From Kiritimatiellia bacterium (GTDB taxonomy: Bacteria > Verrucomicrobiota > Kiritimatiellia > SLAD01): a stretch of 11,747 nt of DNA. Under the pieces are notes generated by a model. The model did no database searches. It was not told the DNA's origin and saw only the letters and a list, made by a program, of their open reading frames with translations. The DNA lies in assembly GCA_007127595.1 (NCBI GenBank), contig SKZA01000299.1:1-11747 (forward strand), given 5' to 3'. Position 1 is the stretch's first letter; every line of letters starts with the position of its first letter. A program made the translations under genes and the position numbers. This document shows, piece by piece, positions 3-11,253 of this stretch.

Positions 3-1514
3 GGGGTGATTATGGGGCGGGCTGTGGAATCGCTGGCGCCGACGCCTTTGGCGGAACTGCGCAAAAGAGCGAATCAAGGATTGCTGCGGGCCTTGTCCAA
101 GAACCCATCAACCCGGTTCCCAGGGTGCAGCGAGTTTGTGAAATCCTTACAGAGCAATCCTCGAAGTGTGTCTGAGTGGGCGGCGTCACCTAATCGCGTA
201 GCGGTGACCGGTATTGTGATCGCTGGCGTTATTGTTGGCATCTGGTTGAGTGCGAACGCGCGTAAAGACAAGTTGGCAGCGGGACCTTTACCTGAGCAGA
301 CCGCTGTGGAGCGCCCTATTGAGATCGAGGGGAACGCTTTGATGCGGGATCAAGGGGATCCGGAAATGTCTCCATCCATGCACCTACTTGAGGCGGAGCA
401 TGTTGAGGATGAGACAATAGAGCGAGGGCGTATGGCGGCGGGCCCGTCTCTGTCGGCTTCGGATCAGGCCGAAAAAGCCAGGGAGTCGCTGCGTGCTCAA
501 GCTGAGTCGCATCGTGCTGCGGCATTGGCGGCTCGCGAAGAAGCGGTCGAACAGAAGGCGGAAGAATGGGCCTCACATCTTTGGCGGCTGGCCGACGACG
601 AACTGCGACTCGCGGATCAGGCTTACGCGGATGATCGTTTTGCCGAGGCGACGACACGTTGGGCGAGTGCCGTGCATGGATACATGGCCGCCCAAGAGTT
701 GGCGCAGCGGACAGAGCTGAAAGAGAAAGCAGAGCAAGCCCGACGTTCCGCCGAAGCAGTGCGACAGCGCGCCGAGGCTGCCGGTGCCGAGCAGTTCGCA
801 GCGAGATCATGGCGGTTGGCGGAAGCATCCATGACGGCTGCGGCGGACCATGCTGGCGAAGGCCGTTACAGCGATGCAAAACGTGAGTGGGATGCTGCCC
901 GGGACGCCTACGAGGCTGGCCGAACTTCAGCCATGAATTATCAGCGGGAACAACGAAGACAGCAGGAATTAGCCCGCGTCCGAGAATCGGCCGAGCGTGC
1001 CCGGGAAAACGCGATTGCTGCGCGTCGTGCTGCGGAAGAGGCTGATGCGGTTGATGACGCTGCAGCCTTATGGCGACAAGCAATCGCTCAGATGGAAAGT
1101 GCAAGTGCCGCCACTGATGATCATCGGTATGCGGAAGCGGAGAGCGACTGGCTTGCTGCTGAAAAGCTGTTTTTTGAGGCGCGACATGAGGCTGAGGGCA
1201 TCCGTCAGCATCGCGAAGAGCAGTTGGCCGCTCGTCCTGCGGCTCTGACATCGCAACAAACAGCAGCGTCGTCCCGGCGTGCGGCTGAACGAGTGAATGC
1301 AGAACACGAAGCGAGTACGGCTTGGCGACGGGCCACGGCGGCACAAAGAAGAGCGGAGACTTTTATGGCAGACCAACAATTCAGGGATGCCAGGCACGCA
1401 TGGGAACAAGCGGCTACACACTTCAACGAGGCCGCTCAAATAGCGCGTCACGCGCAAGAAAATCGTGAGGCGATCGGTAGGAGGCCACCGCCCGTTTTGC
1501 CTCCCTCATTCTGA
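3..1514 (+). CDS. Ser/Thr protein kinase, 3' portion (5' end lies outside the window). It holds the end of the kinase C-lobe, one TM helix (aa 65-83) and a roughly 400-aa extracytoplasmic Ala/Glu/Arg-rich helical repeat domain
   Basis: The open frame reaches the window edge, and the ORF track begins at GTG 6. Residues 'LLRALSKNPSTRFPGCSEFVKSL' match Hanks kinase subdomain XI (LxRALAKDPxxRyxSAxEF). The hydrophobic stretch VAVTGIVIAGVIVGIWLSA follows. Four repeats follow, each of form W-R-x-A...R-Y/F-x-E/D-A...W-x2-A-x3-Y/F-x2-A. Stop TGA at 1512-1514. Confidence 0.7.
   Translation, partial: GVIMGRAVESLAPTPLAELRKRANQGLLRALSKNPSTRFPGCSEFVKSLQSNPRSVSEWAASPNRVAVTGIVIAGVIVGIWLSANARKDKLAAGPLPEQTAVERPIEIEGNALMRDQGDPEMSPSMHLLEAEHVEDETIERGRMAAGPSLSASDQAEKARESLRAQAESHRAAALAAREEAVEQKAEEWASHLWRLADDELRLADQAYADDRFAEATTRWASAVHGYMAAQELAQRTELKEKAEQARRSAEAVRQRAEAAGAEQFAARSWRLAEASMTAAADHAGEGRYSDAKREWDAARDAYEAGRTSAMNYQREQRRQQELARVRESAERARENAIAARRAAEEADAVDDAAALWRQAIAQMESASAATDDHRYAEAESDWLAAEKLFFEARHEAEGIRQHREEQLAARPAALTSQQTAASSRRAAERVNAEHEASTAWRRATAAQRRAETFMADQQFRDARHAWEQAATHFNEAAQIARHAQENREAIGRRPPPVLPPSF
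564..1445 (+). repeat. Four protein-level repeats of about 46 aa at a period of about 84 aa, inside the kinase extracytoplasmic domain. The defining Trp residues are at aa 188/218, 269/295, 356/382 and 440/466
   Basis: The translation was aligned by hand. Unit 1 is EEWASHLWRLADDELRLADQAYADDRFAEATTRWASAVHGYMAAQE. Unit 2 is FAARSWRLAEASMTAAADHAGEGRYSDAKREWDAARDAYEAGRT. Unit 3 is AALWRQAIAQMESASAATDDHRYAEAESDWLAAEKLFFEARHEAE. Unit 4 is STAWRRATAAQRRAETFMADQQFRDARHAWEQAATHFNEAAQIAR. Confidence 0.6.
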
Positions 1515-1524
1515 TGAGCAAAGA

Positions 1525-2334
1525 TTAGAATGTGACAAATCCATGCAGTACCCAGCCCGATAGATCAAGTCGGATTTTGTACACTTCAGGGGCTGAGTAA
1601 GCGCCTAGCTCGTAACGATACCCTCCTCGAAGGCCGAACCCACTTCCGCGTCCAATCGATTGAGCCACCTGAATGCCCGCCTCTCCAACGAGACTAATTC
1701 TTTGCGCCCGGTCGAGGCCGCTTTTGCTATTCCCGAGACCAGACAACGAGCCGGATAGGTAAGCGTCCACCCCCGCCAGCCCAAGCGGAAAGGAGGTCCC
1801 ACCGCCCAGTCCAAGACCAAAAAGTTTCAAGTCTTCCCTCACCAGTTCCAAGGCCTCATTCTGATTATTAGCGCGAAGAGCGATTAAATCGTGCGATCCA
1901 TACCTGAGGCCAATCGCAAAATGTCCGGCTTCACCGAAGGTTATCCATGACAAGTCGACCAGATCAAAGGATCCGGAAAAATCAACAGTGCTGGATCGAG
2001 GAGACGTGCGAGGAATCGTGTCTCGGGTAGCAGTTCCCTGCGCAAAAGCATCAAAGGCATATCGTTGATACTCTAGTCGAAACCCTTGCCCACTATGAAT
2101 GTCATATTGCCAAATATGGGAAACCGTCAGGAATAAGGCTTGGTCCATATCATAATTCAATCGAGCGAGTTCAAGTGAGTCCCCGCTGCTTAGTGCGCGC
2201 AACGACGCGCTTGCCGATGGCTTAAAGTAGCTCCCTCCCACGATCCAGCGCCCCAAGGCTAGACACTCGCGAGTTTGCAGGAAAACGACAAATGCGATGA
2301 TCGCGATTCGCAGCAAAATTCTGTTTGTCCGCAT
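1525..2334 (-). CDS. Outer-membrane beta-barrel protein (269 aa) with a signal peptide
   Basis: ATG at 2334 is preceded by AGGGAGA. The N-terminus MRTNRILLRIAIIAFVVFLQ is a typical signal peptide. Gly/Ser/aromatic-rich alternating amphipathic segments follow, and the protein ends in a C-terminal Phe (…HGFVTF*), the classic outer-membrane protein signature. The upstream part of ORF 1525..2400 begins at a non-Met position. Confidence 0.7.
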   Translation of the reverse strand: MRTNRILLRIAIIAFVVFLQTRECLALGRWIVGGSYFKPSASASLRALSSGDSLELARLNYDMDQALFLTVSHIWQYDIHSGQGFRLEYQRYAFDAFAQGTATRDTIPRTSPRSSTVDFSGSFDLVDLSWITFGEAGHFAIGLRYGSHDLIALRANNQNEALELVREDLKLFGLGLGGGTSFPLGLAGVDAYLSGSLSGLGNSKSGLDRAQRISLVGEAGIQVAQSIGRGSGFGLRGGYRYELGAYSAPEVYKIRLDLSGWVLHGFVTF

Positions 2335-2699: not shown

Positions 2700-3386
2700 T
2701 TAAAACTCCTGCCGAAAACCAATCTCGACAAAGGGCATCGTAGTCTTCTCATCAAAGTCACCGCCCTTGAGCTGTTGGTGGCGGTAGCCGATGGCGAAGA
2801 AGACGGTACTGTCGGCTACGATGGTGTCCATAATCATGGAATAGGCTAGGCCTCCTTCGTAGGCCCATAACACGGCGGTGCCGTCGCTATCGTCCACGTC
2901 GGTCTTCATGCGCATGGGCGCGACCCGGGTGCTGCCGAAGACGAAGAAGCCGGAATAGCCGAGCGGCACACTGCCTTCCAAGCCGATTCCCGCACCAATC
3001 CCGGTGGTCTTGATGTCGCGCTCCAATTCATCCAATGCGCCTTGATCCAAATCCTGCCAGAGATAGCGAAGGTTGGCGAAAAGGCGAAAGGAGGGGGCAA
3101 TATTGAAACCAACCAGCAACTCAAAATCGGCCCGGTCCAACTTGCCGATGGAACCATAGGCGGCATCCAATCCGACCACGAATTGATCGCGATTACCAAA
3201 GTCGTATCGGATCGTGGGCCCGAACTGGACGCCATCCTCCTGTGCCCGTTCATCAAAGAGACTTTTCTCTTCCCAGTCCATGAAGCTCAACCGGAATCCG
3301 TAGGCGGCACTGTCGGCGCGGGTCGTCGTGGCGACCACCGAAAAGATTATTGCGGTGGCAGACAACATCATCATCGTCTTCTTCAT
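2700..3386 (-). CDS. Outer-membrane beta-barrel protein (228 aa), small OmpA/OmpW-like barrel
   Basis: ATG 3386 is preceded by AAGGAGAT. The signal peptide is MKKTMMMLSATAIIFSVVATTTRA. Alternating hydrophobic beta-strand pattern throughout. The C-terminus is …GFRQEF*. Confidence 0.7.
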   Translation of the reverse strand: MKKTMMMLSATAIIFSVVATTTRADSAAYGFRLSFMDWEEKSLFDERAQEDGVQFGPTIRYDFGNRDQFVVGLDAAYGSIGKLDRADFELLVGFNIAPSFRLFANLRYLWQDLDQGALDELERDIKTTGIGAGIGLEGSVPLGYSGFFVFGSTRVAPMRMKTDVDDSDGTAVLWAYEGGLAYSMIMDTIVADSTVFFAIGYRHQQLKGGDFDEKTTMPFVEIGFRQEF

Positions 3387-3410: not shown

Positions 3411-4106
3411 TTACCGCGGTCGGGTCGTGGCTCGCAGGATACTGCGCAACAGCCATACGACGACAATCGCGGCAACGAGAATGGCGACGCCCCAAATGAG
3501 TTGGGTGCTGTAGTGGAACAGAAAGTCGCGGGGCGAGAGCACGGCCTCGCCGGTATAGATGCCACCGGCCAGTTGCTCGCGGGTATCGACCCGGGCGAGA
3601 AAGACTTGCACGCGCACGATGGTGCGCAGCCAGGTATGTTCGACCGACCGGACATGACCCAGCAGAATGGCGTCGGCGCCAATCGTCGTCTCGGGAATCC
3701 CAGCTTCCTCGGTCCACACGATTGTGGCGCGATTGAAGATGTCCCCGTAGCCTTCATCGGGATCCGTGCGGGCCAGTTCCCGTTCAATCACGTTCCAGAC
3801 CGATCCGCCCAATGTGACGATGCGTATGGCGTCGAGCCGGGTCATCTTGCCTTGTAGAATCGAGCTGAGATTACCGGGATCGCGGTCGAGTCGAACAATA
3901 CCGACCCGCTGTACCGCCTCGGCCTTGGGATCGGCCTGAAGGTCCGCAACCCACTGATCAAAAGCCCGTTCGGCAGCCAGATCAATATAGCGATCGACAA
4001 TGGGGCCGCTGGGTCCCTCGATGCGTTGGGCGCTGGCTGTGGCGGACCACAGCAGCAGGCCGGCGATTACTGTCGTTATCCATACGGTTTGAGTGGTCAA
4101 TTTCAT
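3411..4106 (-). CDS. Periplasmic protein (231 aa) with an N-terminal signal peptide and a C-terminal TM anchor, possibly with a CsgG/LpoB/FlgP-like fold
   Basis: ATG 4106 is preceded by AAGGAAAC. The signal peptide is MKLTTQTVWITTVIAGLLLWSATASAQ. The segment 'RVGIVRLDRDPGN…LSSILQGKMTRLDAIRIVTLGGSVWNVIERELA' resembles the conserved N-terminal motif of CsgG/LpoB/FlgP-family periplasmic proteins. This is a tentative call made from memory. The C-terminal hydrophobic helix LIWGVAILVAAIVVVWLL is followed by the basic tail RSILRATTRPR. Confidence 0.6.
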   Translation of the reverse strand: MKLTTQTVWITTVIAGLLLWSATASAQRIEGPSGPIVDRYIDLAAERAFDQWVADLQADPKAEAVQRVGIVRLDRDPGNLSSILQGKMTRLDAIRIVTLGGSVWNVIERELARTDPDEGYGDIFNRATIVWTEEAGIPETTIGADAILLGHVRSVEHTWLRTIVRVQVFLARVDTREQLAGGIYTGEAVLSPRDFLFHYSTQLIWGVAILVAAIVVVWLLRSILRATTRPR

Positions 4107-4131: not shown

Positions 4132-5043
4132 TTATTTATAACGCGAAACGTTGCGACGCAGAACATCCATGCGGCCGGGCTCGTAGCGGGAGGGGCGAAT
4201 ACCCAGCTGAGGGATTTCGCTGAGTAGCTGGGCGATGTCGGCCTCATGTTGCAGCCCATAAATCACCTCGTAGGTCGCCACACGGGATTCCTGGTCCCAA
4301 GCCAAAAGCTCAACATGATCGACGTAGTCGCGCTGTTCCAGCATCAGTCGGATGTGCTGGGCTTGGGCCATGTTGGGCACTTGATTAATCACAATGGCGG
4401 CCCACAACAGTTGATCGGATTTTCGCATCAGGTCGCGGATCAATTCATCGACCAGCGGCGAGGCCAATTGTTCCAGGGCCGCCCGGCCGGCGCGCAGACT
4501 GTCCTGACGGCGGGGACCATTATCCTCCAAACGGTTAGAGGCCAGCAGGGTCCCGTCCCGCCCTCGAATCGCTTTCACATCGGCGACGGCGCGATAGCGG
4601 GTGAAGTGACCGGTGGAATTCAGGAATTCGCTGCGGGCGTCGATGTCGATCACCAAATGAGCGCCGGTTCGCCGTGTAAGCTCGGCAATGGAGCCGGCCG
4701 GTGTGACGGACCCGGTGAAGATACGAAAATCCCGCTGCACCAATCCGCGTTCCAAGGCTTGGCCGATTTCGCTAACATCCGTTTGCCCGCCTTGCGCATC
4801 AATGACGCGTTCATTGCTGCGAATAACCGTTCGCAATTTGCCAAAAGAAATGAATTCACCCGACATCTCCTCCGCTTCGATGGGGTCAAGCCGGGGGGGC
4901 GATTCGGTCGGCGGTGGCGTCACGCGGGCGCGCGGAGGGGGCGCGGTTCCCGGGCGTGCGGTTCCGCATCCGGTCAAGAACACCGTGACCAGTGCGAGTG
5001 GGGCCAATATCAGCCAATCCCTGTATGTGCTGCGTCTTTTCAT
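4132..5043 (-). CDS. Lipoprotein (303 aa) of unknown function
   Basis: ATG 5043 is preceded by GGAGAAG. The lipobox is …LVTVFLTGC. A Pro-rich linker (PPPRARVTPPPTESPP) follows, then a globular region of alternating hydrophobic pattern (…AHLVIDIDARSEF…). It ends 25 nt before the next gene start. Confidence 0.7.
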   Translation of the reverse strand: MKRRSTYRDWLILAPLALVTVFLTGCGTARPGTAPPPRARVTPPPTESPPRLDPIEAEEMSGEFISFGKLRTVIRSNERVIDAQGGQTDVSEIGQALERGLVQRDFRIFTGSVTPAGSIAELTRRTGAHLVIDIDARSEFLNSTGHFTRYRAVADVKAIRGRDGTLLASNRLEDNGPRRQDSLRAGRAALEQLASPLVDELIRDLMRKSDQLLWAAIVINQVPNMAQAQHIRLMLEQRDYVDHVELLAWDQESRVATYEVIYGLQHEADIAQLLSEIPQLGIRPSRYEPGRMDVLRRNVSRYK

Positions 5044-5079: not shown

Positions 5080-6705
5080 TTATGAATTCGGCGGGTCCGA
5101 CCATGAGTTGTGCGGACCCACATCCACAATCTGGCCGCCGATGTATAGGGTCTTCCCATGCGTCAACCATTCCTTCTGTTTGCCGTCAACAAGCAGGAAA
5201 CCATCTTGCATTCGGCAGATCCATGCGTCGGTATCCGACCATTGCAAATCACGGCAGGCCACGGCTTCCCATAAAATCACATGCGTCACCGGTACATGGC
5301 GCGAACGCAGCACCAGGCTGAGCGCTTGATGATCGGCCTTGTGTTTGAGTTGCTTAAAGGGCGTGTGCCGCGCTTTGTCGCGGGTCTGTTGATAGCCCTC
5401 GAACACGTACGCGTCGGGTTCTTGATCACTGCCGGCCAGCGTCAGGGTAAAGGCGCGGTCTTTGGGTAAGGGACTGCTGCCGCCCGGCTGGACACGTTGC
5501 CCGTCCAGATACGTTCCGTAGGCACTGGGTTTATCGGTTCCCTGGTCGGGATAATAACCCAAGTCAACAACCGAACTGCGACCGCCGCGCCGCTCGATCC
5601 GGCAATGATAGCGACTGATTGCGGCGTCGCGCTCTTTCTCTTTTCTGGAACTGCCGGACCGGGCCACGATGGGACATTTACGGTTCTTGCCAATCTGAAT
5701 ATCGTCACCGGACAGCAGTTGAACGATTTGGGCGCCGCATCGAAGCGTTAGGTAGGGAAAGTGGGCATTGGCCGGTTGCGCCGGGATGCCGTCGCTATCG
5801 TCTTCCTCCAGGTCATTGCGTTTGCATAAGTGAAGATTGAGGTTGTTCCAGCAGGCGGGGATGTCGATGGCCGCCAGTTCGGTGACCGGATTGTCCTCTT
5901 TCGGGCGCAAGGCTTCCAAGCCGTCCATGTGCTGCTTGATCACATTATCGGCGGCGCCTTCAGCTTTGAGGTTGTTGTTGATCTCGATCTTGAGGCTGCT
6001 AATCACTGCACTGACTTTTTCAAAGCCGCGGAAGATCGTATGCGTGGGGCGGGCTTTGAATACTTGCCGTGTCTTCCGGCTGTCGTAGCCGATATAGATT
6101 TCAAAACTGATAATGCCTTGTAGGCCGGGCGGCGGACGATACGCCATATGAATATCGAGGCGCCGATGCGCAAATAACATCTCGTCCGGTTCCTCACGGG
6201 CGACCGGATTGCCATTCCGCCGGATTTCAATGAAGAGATTGGTTAAATGACTTTCTTGCGGGGTAATCCTGAATTGGAACGGGACATGCAGGCCATCCAT
6301 AAACACCCGGCTAAAGTTATACTCGACGCGCAATTCCTTGCAGTCCGACACCGGCGGTATCGCGGGGGACGTCTGGTTCTGTGGCGCTCGGGTATGGTCG
6401 TCACCGGCTTGATCCCGTGCCGCAGTGCTCGCTTCAGTCGGTAGCTGTTCGGTGGTCAACCCAATCGCTTGTTTGGCTTTATCCCAGATGGCGCCGGCCG
6501 TTTTCGCCGCCGCGTCCACGGACGACGCCTCATCGGTAGGCGCGGGGAGAGGCGGCTTTGGAAGTGGCGTAGCCGACTCAGCGGAGGCCGGCATCGCAAT
6601 CGGCGCGCGATCCGGCTGACTTAAGTCTGCCCCGCACGAAGAGCACATCCGGTCCCCATCCGGTGTCGGCATCGCGCAGGCGGGGCATCGACGGATTTCG
6701 CTCAT
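5080..6705 (-). CDS. Zinc-ribbon and FHA-domain protein (541 aa). It has an N-terminal Cys4 ribbon, a Pro-rich linker, a roughly 250-aa uncharacterised central domain, an FHA domain and a roughly 110-aa C-terminal extension
   Basis: ATG 6705 is preceded by GAGGA. The N-terminus is MSEIRRCPACAMPTPDGDRMCSSCGADL (CxxC…CxxC). The FHA signature is …IQIGKNRKCPIVARS…ISRYHCRIERRGG…VVDLG…SAYGTYLDGQRV…FTLTLAG, carrying the G-R…S-R-x-H…S-x-N/G-T core. Spacing to neighbouring genes is 35-54 nt. Confidence 0.8.
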   Translation of the reverse strand: MSEIRRCPACAMPTPDGDRMCSSCGADLSQPDRAPIAMPASAESATPLPKPPLPAPTDEASSVDAAAKTAGAIWDKAKQAIGLTTEQLPTEASTAARDQAGDDHTRAPQNQTSPAIPPVSDCKELRVEYNFSRVFMDGLHVPFQFRITPQESHLTNLFIEIRRNGNPVAREEPDEMLFAHRRLDIHMAYRPPPGLQGIISFEIYIGYDSRKTRQVFKARPTHTIFRGFEKVSAVISSLKIEINNNLKAEGAADNVIKQHMDGLEALRPKEDNPVTELAAIDIPACWNNLNLHLCKRNDLEEDDSDGIPAQPANAHFPYLTLRCGAQIVQLLSGDDIQIGKNRKCPIVARSGSSRKEKERDAAISRYHCRIERRGGRSSVVDLGYYPDQGTDKPSAYGTYLDGQRVQPGGSSPLPKDRAFTLTLAGSDQEPDAYVFEGYQQTRDKARHTPFKQLKHKADHQALSLVLRSRHVPVTHVILWEAVACRDLQWSDTDAWICRMQDGFLLVDGKQKEWLTHGKTLYIGGQIVDVGPHNSWSDPPNS

Positions 6706-6759: not shown

Positions 6760-8457
6760 TCATTTTATGATTTGTTGAGTGCCGGCTCCGGGGTTCTTGG
6801 CGGCTTCCGCTGTGGTTTCCAACGCCTTCTGCATGATGCGCTCGACCCGGTCGGCGGCCTCGTCCAGGACCTGTTTGCGCTCGGTCCATTCCTTGTCGCG
6901 TTCATCGCTCTTCGCTTTTTCCTGCTCGAGCAGGACACGCGCAAGGTCCGGGTTCTCTGCCGCATAAGCCGCCATTATTTCTTCCGGCGTCTTTCCGGCG
7001 GTTTGCATCTGCTTGTTCAGGTCCAGAAGGGATTGCCGTTTCGCCGGATCGTCAACTAGGCTGATCAAGGTGGCCAAATCAGCACCTTTACGGCTCTCAA
7101 TCCGTTGCGCCTCATCCTCGCGTGCCAGTTGGGCGCGGGCGGCGGCCTCGTCCCGCTCGATTTTTAGGCGCTCCTGCTCAAACTCCAACTCGAGCCGCCG
7201 CTTTTCCTGTTTTACCTTCAGCCACATTTGTGTGATGGCAACTTCGTTCTCTTCTTCCAAGCGTTTGGCTTCCCGGCTATACGCGTCGCCCAATTTCTTC
7301 AGGCCGATTTCGTTGGCCGTTTGCGCGGTGGCTTGGGCAAAGGCAAAGTCTGCCGCCTGCTTGTCAATTTCCTGACGATGCACCAGCCGCAGGAGGGCCA
7401 GTTCCTGAGTCCGGTGTTCCGTGGCCAAGCCCCGTTCTTGCGCCAATTGCGCGATGTATTCATTCAATTCCGCTTCCGACTTGAATTGATCCATCTTATC
7501 CGAGGCCAGCAGTTCGCGCAGACGCTGATCCAACTCGATCTGTCGCCGTTTCACCTCGACATCACCGGATTTCATCCGCAGCTCTTCGTATTCCTTGCCG
7601 GTGAACTCCGCTGCCGCCACGCGGATCAATTCCAATCCGTAACGGGGCAGTACATCCTTCATGGTTTGCGTCAGCGCATCTTCAATATGGAGTCGGCGTT
7701 GGGGGTCTTTGACCAAGTCTTCGATCGTCGACGTATTGGCGATGTTTTCCATCGCGTACCGGATCTCGCCGGTGAGCAGGGTCTCGATTTCCTGAAACGT
7801 TAGACGCTGATTGCCCTTGAATACGTTGGCCAGAAAGTCGGCCGCTTTCTTGTCAACGAAGTGAAACGCTACCTCCGTGTAAAGCTCAACCGGTATATCT
7901 TCCGCTGTGCGCAGGGCTTCTACCCGCAGCGGCAGGACGACGTCGCCGTTCTCCACCAGGACCACCGTGCGGGGCGGGGGATTGCCCCAATGATTGATCT
8001 TAAGCGCCATGCTTTCCGGGTTGTAGCGGCCGGGTGACAAGACATCCTTAAGCGCGCCACCATCCAGCAAAAGGGCGACAGTGCCTGCTTCGACAATTAG
8101 GCCGTCCTTCAGCATGGGCCGGATGTCACCGATTTCGAATCGTTCAGCCAACACCCCGCCCGGCCGTTGCCAGCGTCCACCGGCAATGCCGGCCCGCGTA
8201 TCTGGAAACAGCGGGGTACTGCAGTTCCAGCAGAAGTGCGACTCATTCCCGACCCACTTATTGCAGGTCGGACAACGCCACCATCCTCCGGGCGCACCCG
8301 CGCCGCACTGGCCGCAGAAGCGGGCGGCCTTCTTCACGCGATTACCGCAGCGCGGCGCTTTCGGATTTTGCCGGGCAGCCGTCAAGGCTTCGCCCGTCAA
8401 TACCTTTCCCGTTCGGGAATCGACCAATGCCTGACAACGATCTGAAAACAAGCCCAT
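6760..8457 (-). CDS. Double zinc ribbon, SPFH/Band-7 (flotillin/HflK-like) domain and long coiled-coil protein (565 aa), with no obvious TM segment
   Basis: Two in-frame ATGs occur (8463, 8457). AAGGAG lies 7 nt from the second. The N-terminus has CGNRVKKAARFCGQCG plus CPTCNKWVGNESHFCWNC. The SPFH-like region is …PGRYN…TAEDIPVELYTEVAFHFVD…TFQEIETLLTGEIR…GLELIRVAAAEF…. An E/R/K/A/Q-rich coiled coil of about 250 aa runs to the stop at 6760. Confidence 0.8.
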   Translation of the reverse strand: MGLFSDRCQALVDSRTGKVLTGEALTAARQNPKAPRCGNRVKKAARFCGQCGAGAPGGWWRCPTCNKWVGNESHFCWNCSTPLFPDTRAGIAGGRWQRPGGVLAERFEIGDIRPMLKDGLIVEAGTVALLLDGGALKDVLSPGRYNPESMALKINHWGNPPPRTVVLVENGDVVLPLRVEALRTAEDIPVELYTEVAFHFVDKKAADFLANVFKGNQRLTFQEIETLLTGEIRYAMENIANTSTIEDLVKDPQRRLHIEDALTQTMKDVLPRYGLELIRVAAAEFTGKEYEELRMKSGDVEVKRRQIELDQRLRELLASDKMDQFKSEAELNEYIAQLAQERGLATEHRTQELALLRLVHRQEIDKQAADFAFAQATAQTANEIGLKKLGDAYSREAKRLEEENEVAITQMWLKVKQEKRRLELEFEQERLKIERDEAAARAQLAREDEAQRIESRKGADLATLISLVDDPAKRQSLLDLNKQMQTAGKTPEEIMAAYAAENPDLARVLLEQEKAKSDERDKEWTERKQVLDEAADRVERIMQKALETTAEAAKNPGAGTQQIIK

Positions 8458-8469
8458 GACCATGCTCCT

Positions 8470-8820
8470 TTATTTCTTCTTCTCCGATTTCTTGTCCGTA
8501 TGTTCTTCGCAGGTGCGGATCTTTTTACGCGTCCAGCAATCATTGCAGATCGGCTCATCGCACACCTTGCACTTCTGTTGCACGGAGAGCCGGCTGTAGT
8601 AGCGCTTGCCACAGCTCGCGCAGCGCGTCTCCGGAGGATTGCGATTCGTCTTGCTTTGTTCGAGGTAGGCATGGAGGTCGGGGGTGGCGACACGGAAAAC
8701 GCGTCCGACGCGAACGGCGGGTAGCTCGCCGGAGCGAACCAGTTTGTAAATCAACTGATAGTTGACGCCGAGGACCTCCGCGACTTCTTCGAGCGATAAA
8801 AATGGCTTTTCCAGGGGCAT
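8470..8820 (-). CDS. Excisionase/MerR-family HTH DNA-binding protein fused to a C-terminal Cys-rich zinc ribbon (116 aa). It is the first gene of the operon and a putative regulator
   Basis: ATG 8820 is preceded by AAGGAC. The sequence 'LSLEEVAEVLGVNYQLIYKLVRSGELPAVRVGRVFRVATPDLHAYL' matches the excisionase-family HTH consensus (LT…EAAELLGVS…YRL…GELPA.R.GR..R…DL…L). The C-terminus is CASCGKRYY…CKVCDEPICNDCW…RTCEEH. The upstream 'M' at 8877 in the ORF track is a TTG inside a TTGACA -35-like box, not a start codon. Confidence 0.75.
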   Translation of the reverse strand: MPLEKPFLSLEEVAEVLGVNYQLIYKLVRSGELPAVRVGRVFRVATPDLHAYLEQSKTNRNPPETRCASCGKRYYSRLSVQQKCKVCDEPICNDCWTRKKIRTCEEHTDKKSEKKK

Positions 8821-9156: not shown

Positions 9157-9483
9157 CTATCGCGCCATTATGCCTAGGAGGCAGTGCAGTTGGCAGGCAA
9201 TATCACCAATGTGTTTACGGTCGTCGCCCAGATTTCTGCGCCATGTAATATCTTCGCCGCTTTTAGCCATGTTTCGGCTCAGGATGTTACACGCATCAAT
9301 AAAGGCATTGTGGGCGCGAGTCCGCTCATCTTCCATCTCTTGTCGCGCTTCTGCAGAAGCCATAAACCAGTCCGTTCGCTTGCGCGCATAACGCACTGCA
9401 GCCAGTACCATGTTATCGACAAGATCGGTATGCCTCGAGCCCTTAATCGCCCTATACAGGCTTTCTATATCTTCAAAACTCAT
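9157..9483 (-). CDS. Hypothetical all-helical protein (108 aa) on a low-GC (about 47%) segment, divergent from abiEi
   Basis: ATG 9483. The track's upstream 'M' at 9492 is TTG. The segment 9240-9600 is 42-57% GC, versus about 60-65% in flanking genes. I recognise no family for MSFEDIESLYRAIKGSRHTDLVDNMVLAAVRYARKRTDW…. Confidence 0.45.
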   Translation of the reverse strand: MSFEDIESLYRAIKGSRHTDLVDNMVLAAVRYARKRTDWFMASAEARQEMEDERTRAHNAFIDACNILSRNMAKSGEDITWRRNLGDDRKHIGDIACQLHCLLGIMAR

Positions 9484-9682
9484 TACTCGCAATCAGTAGA
9501 ATTACGCCGCACATTTTTCTGTCCAGAGTGAGAGAGAAGATAGGCACAGACATCCTTGATTCCGAGAATATTCTTAAAGTTTCAGTTCAGCCTTCCCAGT
9601 CAGGAGTGCTACCATTCACGGACAAGAGGAATAAATGGTGGTCTCGACTTCAGCCACTGCGCTTCTACGGTCATGCGGTAAG

Positions 9683-9716: not shown

Positions 9717-9774
9717 ATGCACTGAAACCGGGCGAGGTGGTCCCGGAGGGGCATCTCGGCGGGTGGGAATCGAT

Positions 9775-9821
9775 TTTCATTGCAACAAGGAGACGGAAGT
9801 GTCATTATGTTGCAATGAAAA
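9775..9821 (+). promoter_or_regulatory. Perfect 13-bp inverted repeat TTTCATTGCAACA-N21-TGTTGCAATGAAA spanning the abiEi RBS and start codon. It is the predicted AbiEi autoregulatory operator
   Basis: Left arm is 9775-9787 and right arm 9809-9821. The ATG at 9815 lies inside the right arm. The spacer holds AAGGAGA (9787-9793). AbiEi antitoxins are known to autorepress by binding inverted repeats in their promoters. Confidence 0.5.
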
Positions 9822-10453
9822 TTGAAGAGCTGCGAAATATCTTGGGCGACCAGGCGGTGTTCCGGACAGGAAACCTGCTGGCTGGGCAGGACGCGCCCGC
9901 CCATGTCCGGCGGCAATTGGCGCGGTGGGTGAAGGCGGGGAAAGTTATTCCGCTCCGTAGGGGACTCTACGTGCTGGCGGAGCCGTACGCGAAACAAACG
10001 CCGCATCCCTTCATACTGGCCAATGAAATGCGCCGGGCCTCCTATGTCAGCATGCAGTCGGCCCTTGCCTGGTACGGGTGCATTCCGGAATATGTGCCGA
10101 CGGTAACAAGCGTAACCACGGAACGACCGGAAGAAATAGAAAACGTCAAGGGCCGCTTTATCTTCCGTCATATCAAAAGAGATCTTCTGTGGGGCATGAC
10201 GCGGGAGGAGGTCGCGCCGGGCCAGATCGCGCTGGTGGCCTCTCCCGAAAAGGCCTTGATTGATCTGCTCTATCTAACAGCACACAGCGATGACGAGGGA
10301 TATCTTGATGAACTGCGATTGGATCCCGGGCACCGTCTATCGCCAGACCGCCTGATTGAGATGGCCGATCGCACGGGCTCCCAAAAAGTATTGCGCGCTG
10401 TTCATTACTTGGCCCGGGCATGGAAGCAGACGGAGGGGGGAGAGGATATATGA
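9815..10453 (+). CDS. abiEi: AbiEi-family antitoxin / transcriptional regulator (type IV TA), 212 aa
   Basis: MKIEELRNILGDQAVFRTGNLLAG…QLARWVKAGKVIPLRRGLYVL matches the AbiEi N-terminal wHTH motif (…L…G.l.R..RGvY.l). Its stop TGA at 10451-10453 overlaps the ATG of the next gene (ATGA). An alternative GTG start at 9737 cannot be excluded. AAGGAGA lies 21 nt upstream of ATG 9815. Confidence 0.75.
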   Translation: MKIEELRNILGDQAVFRTGNLLAGQDAPAHVRRQLARWVKAGKVIPLRRGLYVLAEPYAKQTPHPFILANEMRRASYVSMQSALAWYGCIPEYVPTVTSVTTERPEEIENVKGRFIFRHIKRDLLWGMTREEVAPGQIALVASPEKALIDLLYLTAHSDDEGYLDELRLDPGHRLSPDRLIEMADRTGSQKVLRAVHYLARAWKQTEGGEDI

Positions 10454-11253
10454 AGGATTTACTGCTGAATACCCTGCGTGATGAATCCGACGCCTTGCGC
10501 AAACGCAATCGGGCCCGCGAATTTCTGCAGGCGCGCATTTTGCTGTCCCTCCAGGATCAGGGTGCCTTCGCCAACTGGGCTTTTGTAGATGGGACAGCTT
10601 TGCGTTTTCTCTACGACCTGCCACGCTATTCCGAAGACCTGGACTTCTCGCTGCGGGCCCCCGGTGACGACGCCCGCTTCGCGTCCATCCTGCGGGCCGT
10701 TAAATCGGATCTCGTAGCCGAGGCGTACGAAGTGGACATCCGGGTCAGGGAGCAACGGACCGTCGCCGCCGCCATAATCAAATTCCGAGGGCTTCTCTAT
10801 GAAATGGACCTTTCCCCGCATCGCGACGAGACGTTTGCGGTCAAGGTGGAGATGGACACGAACCCACCGTCTGGCGCGGTATGTACGACGCGACTCGTGC
10901 GTAAACACTATCTGCTCCATCTCATGCAGCATGACCAAAGCTCCTTACTAGCCGGCAAGCTGCACGCCGTTTTGACGCGCAAATATACCAAGGGCCGGGA
11001 CCTATACGACTTGCTGTGGTATCTCTCGTCACCTGAATGGCCACCGCCGAACCTTGACCTATTGAGCGATGCCCTGGAGCAGACGGGTTGGGCTGGGGAG
11101 GCCCTGACGGAAACCGCCTGGCGGCAGGCGATCGCGGCACAACTCAAGAATATTGACTGGAAGCAAGCGCGTGAAGATGTGGCCCCCTTTCTCGAACGCA
11201 GTCAGGAGATCAATTTGATTGCGCCGGAACCCCTTGAACAATTGCTGAGATAA
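10450..11253 (+). CDS. abiEii: AbiEii/AbiGii-family nucleotidyltransferase toxin (DUF1814), 267 aa
   Basis: 'FVDGTALRFLYDLPRYSEDLDFSL' matches the AbiEii GGTAL…R.SEDLDF nucleotidyltransferase motif. The gene is translationally coupled to abiEi through the ATGA overlap. Confidence 0.8.
   Translation: MKDLLLNTLRDESDALRKRNRAREFLQARILLSLQDQGAFANWAFVDGTALRFLYDLPRYSEDLDFSLRAPGDDARFASILRAVKSDLVAEAYEVDIRVREQRTVAAAIIKFRGLLYEMDLSPHRDETFAVKVEMDTNPPSGAVCTTRLVRKHYLLHLMQHDQSSLLAGKLHAVLTRKYTKGRDLYDLLWYLSSPEWPPPNLDLLSDALEQTGWAGEALTETAWRQAIAAQLKNIDWKQAREDVAPFLERSQEINLIAPEPLEQLLR

Follow-up and report, generated by a model that had tools for sequence, protein, structure and literature searches.

SPFH proteins, which occur in all domains of life, organise membrane microdomains; a central question about them is how they get to a membrane and how they choose it. 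HflK/C, QmcA, stomatin, prohibitin, erlin and flotillin are anchored by a transmembrane (TM) helix, a hairpin or acylation. Here we analyse an SPFH protein that has no TM segment and starts with a predicted double zinc ribbon (hereafter DZR-SPFH), together with its gene cluster, in an 11,747-nt stretch of DNA from a Kiritimatiellia bacterium; "the window" denotes that whole stretch. The closest described system is found in Bacillus subtilis, where YdjI, an SPFH protein without hydrophobic anchor but with a C-terminal zinc-finger motif, is recruited by the membrane proteins YdjG and YdjH (PMC8581546). [quoted passage not shown] Archaeal "Meth_adaptin" ESCRT loci encode an SPFH, coiled-coil and zinc-ribbon protein beside ESCRT-III and Vps4 (Makarova et al. 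2024, PMC10936438), and other archaeal ESCRT loci ("Halo_FHA") contain FHA proteins and Ser/Thr kinases or phosphatases (PMC10936438). Occasional bacterial Snf7 homologues accompanied by AAA+ proteins, as well as transfer of VPS4-like ATPases to bacteria, have been described and ATP-dependent membrane remodelling was proposed for them (Ravi et al. 2024, PMC11237479); according to a 2025 review, however, bacteria seem to have no Vps4-like ATPase (PMC7619361). Reviews regard Snf7-type ESCRT-III as predominantly archaeo-eukaryotic, with occasional bacterial examples (PMC11237479, PMC7619361). An anchorless SPFH protein with a zinc finger, which a sequence-only reading of this stretch had contrasted with the canonical membrane-anchored ones, was hence already known from YdjI, and SPFH proteins with a zinc ribbon were known from the archaeal ESCRT loci. 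No published description of the DZR-SPFH family or of its gene cluster was found in the literature.

The long open reading frame (ORF) of the DZR-SPFH gene spans 6760..8463 on the minus strand. Its third codon, an ATG at 8457, was assigned as start codon because the Shine-Dalgarno sequence AGGAG lies 7 nt 5' of it, directly past the stop of the preceding gene, because homologues all start with MG[LI]F and because the gene call on the source contig likewise gives 565 aa. The interval 6760-8457 given by the sequence-only reading is therefore exact. Protein residues are numbered from this methionine, which is M3 of the long ORF. The 565-aa product (6760..8457, minus strand, as all its parts) consists of an N-terminal module of residues 1-82 (8212..8457) that comprises MGLFSD and the double zinc ribbon and is supported by cysteine invariance, the Pfam DZR match and a predicted local distance difference test (pLDDT) of 79-95; an SPFH (Band 7) core of residues ~101-296 (7570..8157); and an Ala/Glu-rich helical and coiled-coil region of residues ~297-554 (6796..7569), recognised by its composition and by DSSP analysis of the structural model.

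The SPFH assignment held. Pfam Band_7 (PF01145) matches residues 121-292 at 48.9 bits, against a gathering cut-off of 23.6, and also matches 52/65 distant relatives, whereas Band_7_1 (PF13421, YdjI-type/COG4260) covers only residues 200-281 at 20.8 bits, below its cut-off of 24, and is found in 15/65 distant relatives at E<=0.001. The AlphaFold2 (AF2) model, a monomer prediction with a mean pLDDT of 84.2, shows a long coiled-coil helix after an alpha/beta fold of the SPFH type; DSSP delimits a helix of 91 residues (366-456) and another of 52 residues (503-554). Over residues 300-567 Ala accounts for 14.6% and Glu for 14.2%, in ~260 residues of helix rich in Ala, Glu, Leu, Arg, Gln and Lys, in keeping with the long EA-rich coiled coil noticed at the outset. 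Its counterpart in SPFH cage structures is the coiled-coil wall (aligned lengths 216-250), and the best structural matches in the PDB include HflK/C and QmcA. Sequence searches of the PDB, with the protein (phmmer) or with a 79-sequence profile (hmmsearch), returned no meaningful relative, so kinship to solved structures is visible by fold comparison only; NCBIfam held nothing for the SPFH protein either. The label "flotillin-like" applies at superfamily level only, since the window protein has no match to the Pfam flotillin domain (Flot) at E<=0.01 and since stomatin, HflC, prohibitin and erlin are fold matches as good as flotillin.

Eight cysteines, C8, C37, C48 and C51 followed by C62, C65, C76 and C79, form what is predicted to be a metal-binding double zinc ribbon. 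All eight are invariant in 144 sequences, namely 79 close relatives with 40-89% identity and 65 distant relatives with 21-44% identity. Pfam DZR (PF12773) scores 26.4 bits in the window protein, 0.9 under the cut-off of 27.3, and matches 65/65 distant relatives at E<=0.001 (best 2.4e-16). Distant relatives start with MGLFSDKCxxCG and have a canonical CxxC-x10-CxxC-x10-CxxC-x10-CxxC array from residue 8, whereas in the clade of the window protein the first knuckle is split by a partly helical insertion of 26-50 residues between Cys1 and Cys2. Thus the proposal of two N-terminal Cys4 ribbons stands as far as the cysteines and the DZR matches are concerned, but the first ribbon is not a canonical CxxC...CxxC. 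The insertion in the window protein amounts to 28 residues (C8...C37), residues 9-37, window 8347-8433 (minus strand), and is modelled with a pLDDT of about 90. Most distant family members have an extra C-terminal CxxC...CxxC ribbon; the window protein contains no Cys after residue 79 and hence no such ribbon.

The N-terminal module is the most conserved stretch of the protein: column identity is 0.82 in residues 1-7 and 0.77 in the ribbons but only 0.63 in the SPFH core and 0.35 in the main coiled coil. The module is basic throughout the family (mean net charge +5.9, window protein +8) while the remainder of the protein is acidic, and it is Trp-rich, with Trp kept in GGWW, KWVGN and FCWNC. 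The MGLFSD start might suggest N-myristoylation, but this was dismissed, as Ser is found at position 5 rather than 6 and as bacteria are not known to have the enzyme.

Hydropathy agrees with the earlier statement that the protein shows no hydrophobic segment. The top 19-residue Kyte-Doolittle window reaches 1.29 and lies within the SPFH core, the linker between ribbons and SPFH core (residues 82-100) is polar, and by hydropathy no TM helix or hairpin was found between the two. A value of 1.6 is reached by 0/120 close relatives and by only 6/146 distant representatives, two of which, both long, have a clear C-terminal TM helix. The gene product is a cytoplasmic member of the SPFH superfamily without TM segment.

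The combination of DZR and SPFH, thought unusual in the sequence-only reading, turned out to define a conserved family. When 1.84 billion cluster representatives were searched exhaustively with a profile, 1246 clusters matched at E<=1e-3, of which 735 reached E<=1e-10 and 330 reached E<=1e-30, and the layout of DZR, SPFH and coiled coil is common to the profile matches listed. Given the 735 clusters at E<=1e-10 and this common layout, the fusion is not an oddity of one genome. A word-indexed search identified 180 full-length relatives, the few named ones being metagenome-assembled genomes (MAGs) of Verrucomicrobia, Lentisphaerae and Kiritimatiellae. Scanning one genome per GTDB species gave 50 loci, all from MAGs, and all taxonomically labelled loci belong to groups of the Planctomycetes-Verrucomicrobia-Chlamydiae (PVC) bacteria. 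The close clade is restricted to PVC bacteria.

In the window, DZR-SPFH is the second of six minus-strand genes with intergenic gaps of 12-54 nt. Judged by this spacing, the HTH, SPFH and FHA genes and three genes for envelope proteins are shown as a predicted co-transcribed unit. The first gene (8470..8820) encodes a 116-aa DNA-binding protein of the HTH_17/excisionase type (HTH_17 48.5 bits, TIGR01764) with a C-terminal zinc module; between its stop and the start of the SPFH gene there are 12 nt, the first base past the stop codon being 8469. The third gene (5080..6705) encodes a 541-aa protein with an N-terminal zinc ribbon (Zn_ribbon), a low-complexity linker, a middle domain and an FHA domain (residues 337-414, 34.3 bits). 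This protein evolves fast, having only four homologues in a word-based search, yet its N-terminal CxxC...CxxC is conserved. A predicted 303-aa lipoprotein with a hydrophobic N-terminus and lipobox LTGC is the product of the fourth gene (4132..5043), and the 231-aa protein encoded by the fifth (3411..4106) combines a signal peptide and an LpoB-like periplasmic domain with a single TM helix near the C-terminus (residues ~253-271 of the long ORF) and a short cytoplasmic tail; NCBIfam had nothing for either. The product of the sixth gene (2700..3386), 228 aa long, has a signal peptide, ends in Phe and resembles outer-membrane beta-barrels (weak OMP_b-brl match, 22.3 bits). A scan for promoters and terminators found fewer promoter-like sites than in shuffled sequences and terminator-like sites at chance level.

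Conservation of the cluster was determined by tblastn over 53 non-redundant loci, with loci that have enough flank as denominators. The HTH gene lies upstream of the SPFH gene in 43/49 loci and the FHA gene downstream of it in 33/44. Relatives whose SPFH proteins are 86%, 57% and 44% identical to that of the window keep this gene order; homologues of the lipoprotein are present in loci L001, L002, L007, L010 and L011, and in the same five loci the gene for the beta-barrel-like protein occupies the same position. Another sub-clade, represented by L005, has a variant with a different lipoprotein of 273 aa and an LpoB-like protein of 366 aa, the latter matching Pfam LpoB at 27.7 bits over 60 residues. 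The LpoB-like protein of the window ends in LLRSILRATTRPR (3411-3452, minus strand), its last residues being ATTRPR, and an end of the form [T/S/R]R[P/V/A]R-COOH is conserved in nearly all 28 LpoB-like homologues. Since it is the extreme C-terminus on the predicted cytoplasmic side that is conserved, the tail could serve the operon's anchorless cytoplasmic proteins as a place to dock or as a phosphorylation site.

Ser/Thr kinases flank the cluster in nearly every related locus. In the window a convergent kinase gene occupies 6..1514 on the plus strand; it corresponds to the C-terminal part of a 791-aa protein with a Pkinase domain on the source contig. Together with the FHA domain in the gene next to DZR-SPFH, it bears out the FHA/kinase neighbourhood that the first reading had described. 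The kinase part has one TM helix at residues 65-83, followed by Ala/Glu/Arg-rich repeats with regularly spaced Trp (EEWASHLWRLA, ARSWRLAEAS, ALWRQAIAQ, STAWRRATAAQ) that lack a Pfam match; this tail may be a periplasmic repeat sensor domain.

Zinc modules recur among these proteins. The last 40 residues of the HTH_17 protein (window 8470-8600, minus strand) contain a conserved C-x2-C...C-x2-C...C-x2-C-W...C-x2-H arrangement of seven Cys and one His, and a very similar module opens the coiled-coil proteins that precede Snf7-like genes in related loci (L007:16181-17149, L005:16260-17288 and others). Terminal zinc ribbons are also found on the FHA protein, the SPFH protein and many kinases of the related loci. 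These modules may form a common docking element of the system. It could be argued that the ribbons bind nucleic acid and that DZR-SPFH acts with the HTH protein in gene regulation, not at a membrane, as the N-terminal module is strongly basic (+8) and the gene upstream, at a distance of only 12 nt, encodes a DNA-binding protein. We consider this very improbable: the SPFH proteins matched by fold in the PDB are all membrane or cage scaffolds and none binds nucleic acid, and the presence of the same ribbon type on FHA proteins, kinases and a coiled-coil protein argues for a common role in docking to proteins or membranes.

In most relatives the operon does not end with these genes, so that its description as an FHA/kinase context was correct but incomplete. 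Among 34 non-redundant loci with at least 8 kb of downstream sequence, 24 have a downstream coiled-coil gene, whose product in most loci carries an N-terminal zinc module like that of the HTH protein, 21 have a Snf7-like gene (~210 aa) and 20 a gene for a classical AAA ATPase (~370 aa). Examples are L007, with the Snf7-like gene at 17207-17836 (+) and the AAA gene at 17856-18971 (+), L005, with the two at 18391-19050 and 17272-18375, respectively, and L063, with a Snf7-like gene at 10001-10630. The Snf7-like proteins match Pfam Snf7 in 21/21 cases at E<=0.01 (best 2.5e-8; L007 protein 29.5 bits against a cut-off of 27.3) and some were already named "Snf7 family protein" by NCBI. The best PDB matches of an AF2 model of the Snf7-like protein (pLDDT 80) are CdvB2, Asgard ESCRT-IIIB, Ist1, CHMP1B and Snf7, with PspA and Vipp1 scoring lower. 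Its N-terminus (MGFLFFKSKKEKER...) recalls what we take to be the hydrophobic-then-basic membrane-insertion motif of ESCRT-III. The coiled-coil protein with zinc module was considered as a second ESCRT-III paralogue and rejected, as hhalign gave 0.3% probability against the Snf7-like family and a PDB profile search came out empty.

The ATPases have a single classical AAA domain with AAA_lid_3 (22/22), and their best sequence matches in the PDB are Cdc48/p97. Their C-terminus (IPSSVTxxLMxxYExFxxxRFG) seems to resemble the C-terminal helix of Vps4, katanin and spastin. The N-terminus appears MIT-like by eye, but an MIT domain was detected neither by Pfam nor by phmmer against the PDB and is not claimed here. 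Because Vps4_C is found in 1/22 ATPases and no MIT domain is detectable, "Vps4-like" is inferred from architecture and context, and we use the term for these putative counterparts in that sense only.

The arrangement varies among loci. In the 57%-identical relative (L063), inserted kinase genes precede the Snf7 gene, which is found 14 kb downstream in the same orientation, and downstream of this kinase/Snf7 stretch RVT_1 is followed by bAvd (L063:19322-20630 (+)), the signature of a diversity-generating retroelement. Distant DZR-SPFH loci have HTH_17, AAA and three kinases (L062) or FHA and a kinase (L061).

HflK/C, which are SPFH proteins, regulate FtsH. Just past the cluster of the 86% relative, at L001:17462-21013 (-), lies a gene for a 1183-aa protein with two AAA domains and Peptidase_M41 (FtsH-type) that is not conserved in other loci. 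An SPFH cage that encloses or restrains a protease, in the manner of HflK/C-FtsH or stomatin-NfeD, would agree with this neighbour, with HflK/C and QmcA being among the best structural matches, with a trypsin-like protease gene inside the L005 cluster and with a distant family member that is fused to a trypsin domain. The window and most loci contain no protease gene, though, the trypsin homologue occurs in few loci only, and cytoplasmic DZR-SPFH is devoid of the TM helix that positions HflK/C around FtsH, which makes such a cage improbable.

The reading we favour, with about even chances of being correct, is that DZR-SPFH serves as a peripheral platform of the SPFH type for remodelling or repairing membranes under control by phosphorylation, by analogy with YdjI-PspA. 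Like other SPFH proteins it would oligomerise by means of its SPFH domain and coiled coil into a ring or cage, here on the cytoplasmic face of the inner membrane. Where canonical SPFH proteins have their TM helix or hairpin, DZR-SPFH has the N-terminal ribbon module, which most likely stands in for such an anchor; that this module is the most conserved region and uniformly basic, against an acidic remainder, points to it as the attachment site. Replacement could be achieved by either of two routes, direct binding of acidic lipids or docking on a membrane partner. The best candidate partner would be the LpoB-like protein with its conserved TR(P/V)R tail in the cytoplasm, in which the frequent Thr could be a target of the kinase/FHA system. 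The platform would then localise or gate membrane remodelling or repair by an ESCRT-III-like polymer and its ATPase, while Ser/Thr kinases and the FHA protein would control it by phosphorylation and couple it to the envelope proteins of the operon. In a stronger form, which we put forward tentatively and consider somewhat doubtful, DZR-SPFH would be the membrane-platform subunit of a genuine bacterial ESCRT-like machine, consisting of SPFH scaffold, Snf7-type protein, Vps4-like AAA ATPase, FHA adaptor and kinases and connected to Gram-negative envelope proteins, that parallels the archaeal SPFH/FHA/Ser/Thr kinase ESCRT systems by ancient transfer or common descent.

Several observations weigh against this platform model. 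The window, the examined 16.6 kb (4793-21356) of the 21,356-bp source contig and the 10-kb flanks of the 86% relative all lack a Snf7 or AAA gene, and 13/34 related loci show no ESCRT link. With no adjacent Snf7 or AAA gene the link applies to the window gene by orthology only, and a Snf7/AAA pair would therefore need to be encoded elsewhere in the genome. Regarding the downstream proteins, fold-match E-values to ESCRT-III are weak (0.03-0.3), the profile-to-PDB match of the Snf7-like family to Snf7 has an E-value of only 0.08, Vps4_C is restricted to the ATPase of L062 (21.9 bits, cut-off 21.3), and Pfam and PDB phmmer searches of the ATPases returned no MIT domain. In the SPFH protein itself the hydrophobic moment highlighted charged coiled-coil segments only, and an amphipathic membrane helix was not found; the absence of a TM helix is a hydropathy prediction, and oligomerisation, zinc binding, membrane association and protein-protein contacts are all predicted as well.

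An alternative is a scaffold for envelope assembly that works independently of ESCRT-III. Under regulation by kinases, the SPFH, FHA and HTH proteins might make up the cytoplasmic part of a module that spans the envelope and also includes the lipoprotein, the LpoB-like protein and the outer membrane protein. Such a module could, for instance, control peptidoglycan synthesis or outer-membrane biogenesis, much as LpoB activates PBP1b. In the sub-clade of the window the constant companions of the SPFH gene are precisely the HTH, FHA, lipoprotein, LpoB-like and outer membrane protein genes, the lineage has no adjacent Snf7 or AAA gene, and the L005 counterpart protein matches Pfam LpoB. In B. subtilis, moreover, deletion of YdjG/H delocalises cell-wall synthesis (PMC8581546). 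Still we judge this scaffold unlikely, as the LpoB similarity is weak (27.7 bits, 60 residues), the cluster contains no penicillin-binding protein or other cell-wall gene, and in 21/34 loci the gene string includes one for ESCRT-III.

Outside the operon, a 269-aa protein is encoded at 1525-2334 (-), 365 nt past its end; it has a signal peptide and the C-terminal GFVTF typical of outer-membrane barrels, and neither a homologue in the related loci nor a family match was found. On the other side a 111-aa ORF at 9157-9492 (-), called as 108 aa on the source contig and lacking a family match, separates the operon from a pair of AbiEi antitoxin and AbiEii toxin genes at 9737-10453 (+) and 10420-11253 (+) with a 34-nt overlap (PADLOC E 6e-53 and 2.6e-65). 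The pair is on the opposite strand, 860 nt beyond the operon start, and unrelated genes take its place in related loci. As neighbours upstream and far downstream vary by locus (FeoB, a TonB receptor, peptidases, carotenoid genes), its adjacency appears incidental. A known defence system was ruled out, since strong PADLOC matches were obtained only for these neighbouring AbiEi/AbiEii proteins.

A role in biological conflict, be it anti-phage defence or programmed death, in which kinase/FHA signalling triggers membrane disruption or protection, would nonetheless fit the nearby AbiE pair, the FGE-sulfatase domains on kinases of these loci and the abundance of caspase-like Peptidase_C14 and FGE-sulfatase proteins in distant locus L061. 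Such domains are typical of conflict systems (PMC7159879). PADLOC was empty for five of the six operon proteins, and the HTH protein gave weak matches only (mad1 25.2 bits, to the HTH motif, and Cas10 16.5). In addition, flanks differ in every locus, and gene order and divergence track PVC taxonomy rather than being island-like. We therefore see only a small chance that DZR-SPFH is a conflict component.

How, then, does the PVC cluster with its proposed SPFH platform compare to known systems? The canonical SPFH proteins HflK/HflC, QmcA, stomatin, prohibitin, erlin and flotillin are anchored, unlike DZR-SPFH, which has no profile-level sequence similarity to any PDB chain. YdjI shares with DZR-SPFH the SPFH domain, the lack of an anchor, a zinc finger and a linkage to the ESCRT-III superfamily, here in related loci, and its C-terminal ribbon has a counterpart in the C-terminal CxxC...CxxC of many distant DZR-SPFH family members. 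The two differ in that the ribbons of DZR-SPFH are N-terminal and double, with no C-terminal one in the window protein, in the better fit to Band_7 (48.9 bits) than to Band_7_1 (20.8, under cut-off), in the much longer coiled coil and in the linked ESCRT-III, which is Snf7-type and not PspA and is accompanied by an AAA ATPase, FHA and Ser/Thr kinases. YdjG and YdjH, judged from their published description, have architectures different from those of the LpoB-like protein and the lipoprotein. The archaeal ESCRT loci, also compared by description, distribute over several locus types what the PVC bacteria join in one bacterial cluster, that is, SPFH with zinc ribbon, FHA, Ser/Thr kinase, Snf7 and AAA, plus Gram-negative envelope proteins. 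The contexts of bacterial Snf7 in PMC11237479 (ABC transporter/OmpA, TPR-6TM) are unlike the PVC cluster, and the text of that paper contains no SPFH-DZR partner, no "FHA" and no "Verrucomicrobia".

Already known are thus the anchorless zinc-finger SPFH protein, the link between SPFH and ESCRT-III, archaeal ESCRT loci with SPFH, coiled-coil and zinc-ribbon proteins, FHA proteins or kinases, and occasional bacterial Snf7 and AAA+ proteins. New are a large family defined by an N-terminal double ribbon, a first knuckle that is split in the clade of the window protein, and a conserved PVC operon that joins DZR-SPFH to FHA/kinase signalling, envelope proteins and usually a Snf7-type protein and AAA ATPase. 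The family would represent a second solution, besides a TM helix or hairpin, to the question of membrane reach, with a basic double zinc ribbon at the position of the anchor in hundreds of lineages. The cluster is more surprising than the protein alone, but its Snf7/AAA part lies outside the window and its function is what we infer. Eukaryote-like membrane biology has long been a topic of discussion in PVC bacteria. Should the link prove functional, these bacteria would offer a bacterial model for cooperation between SPFH proteins and ESCRT-III, and the evolutionary origin of the SPFH-ESCRT connection would become testable; the only other known example of such cooperation is YdjI-PspA.

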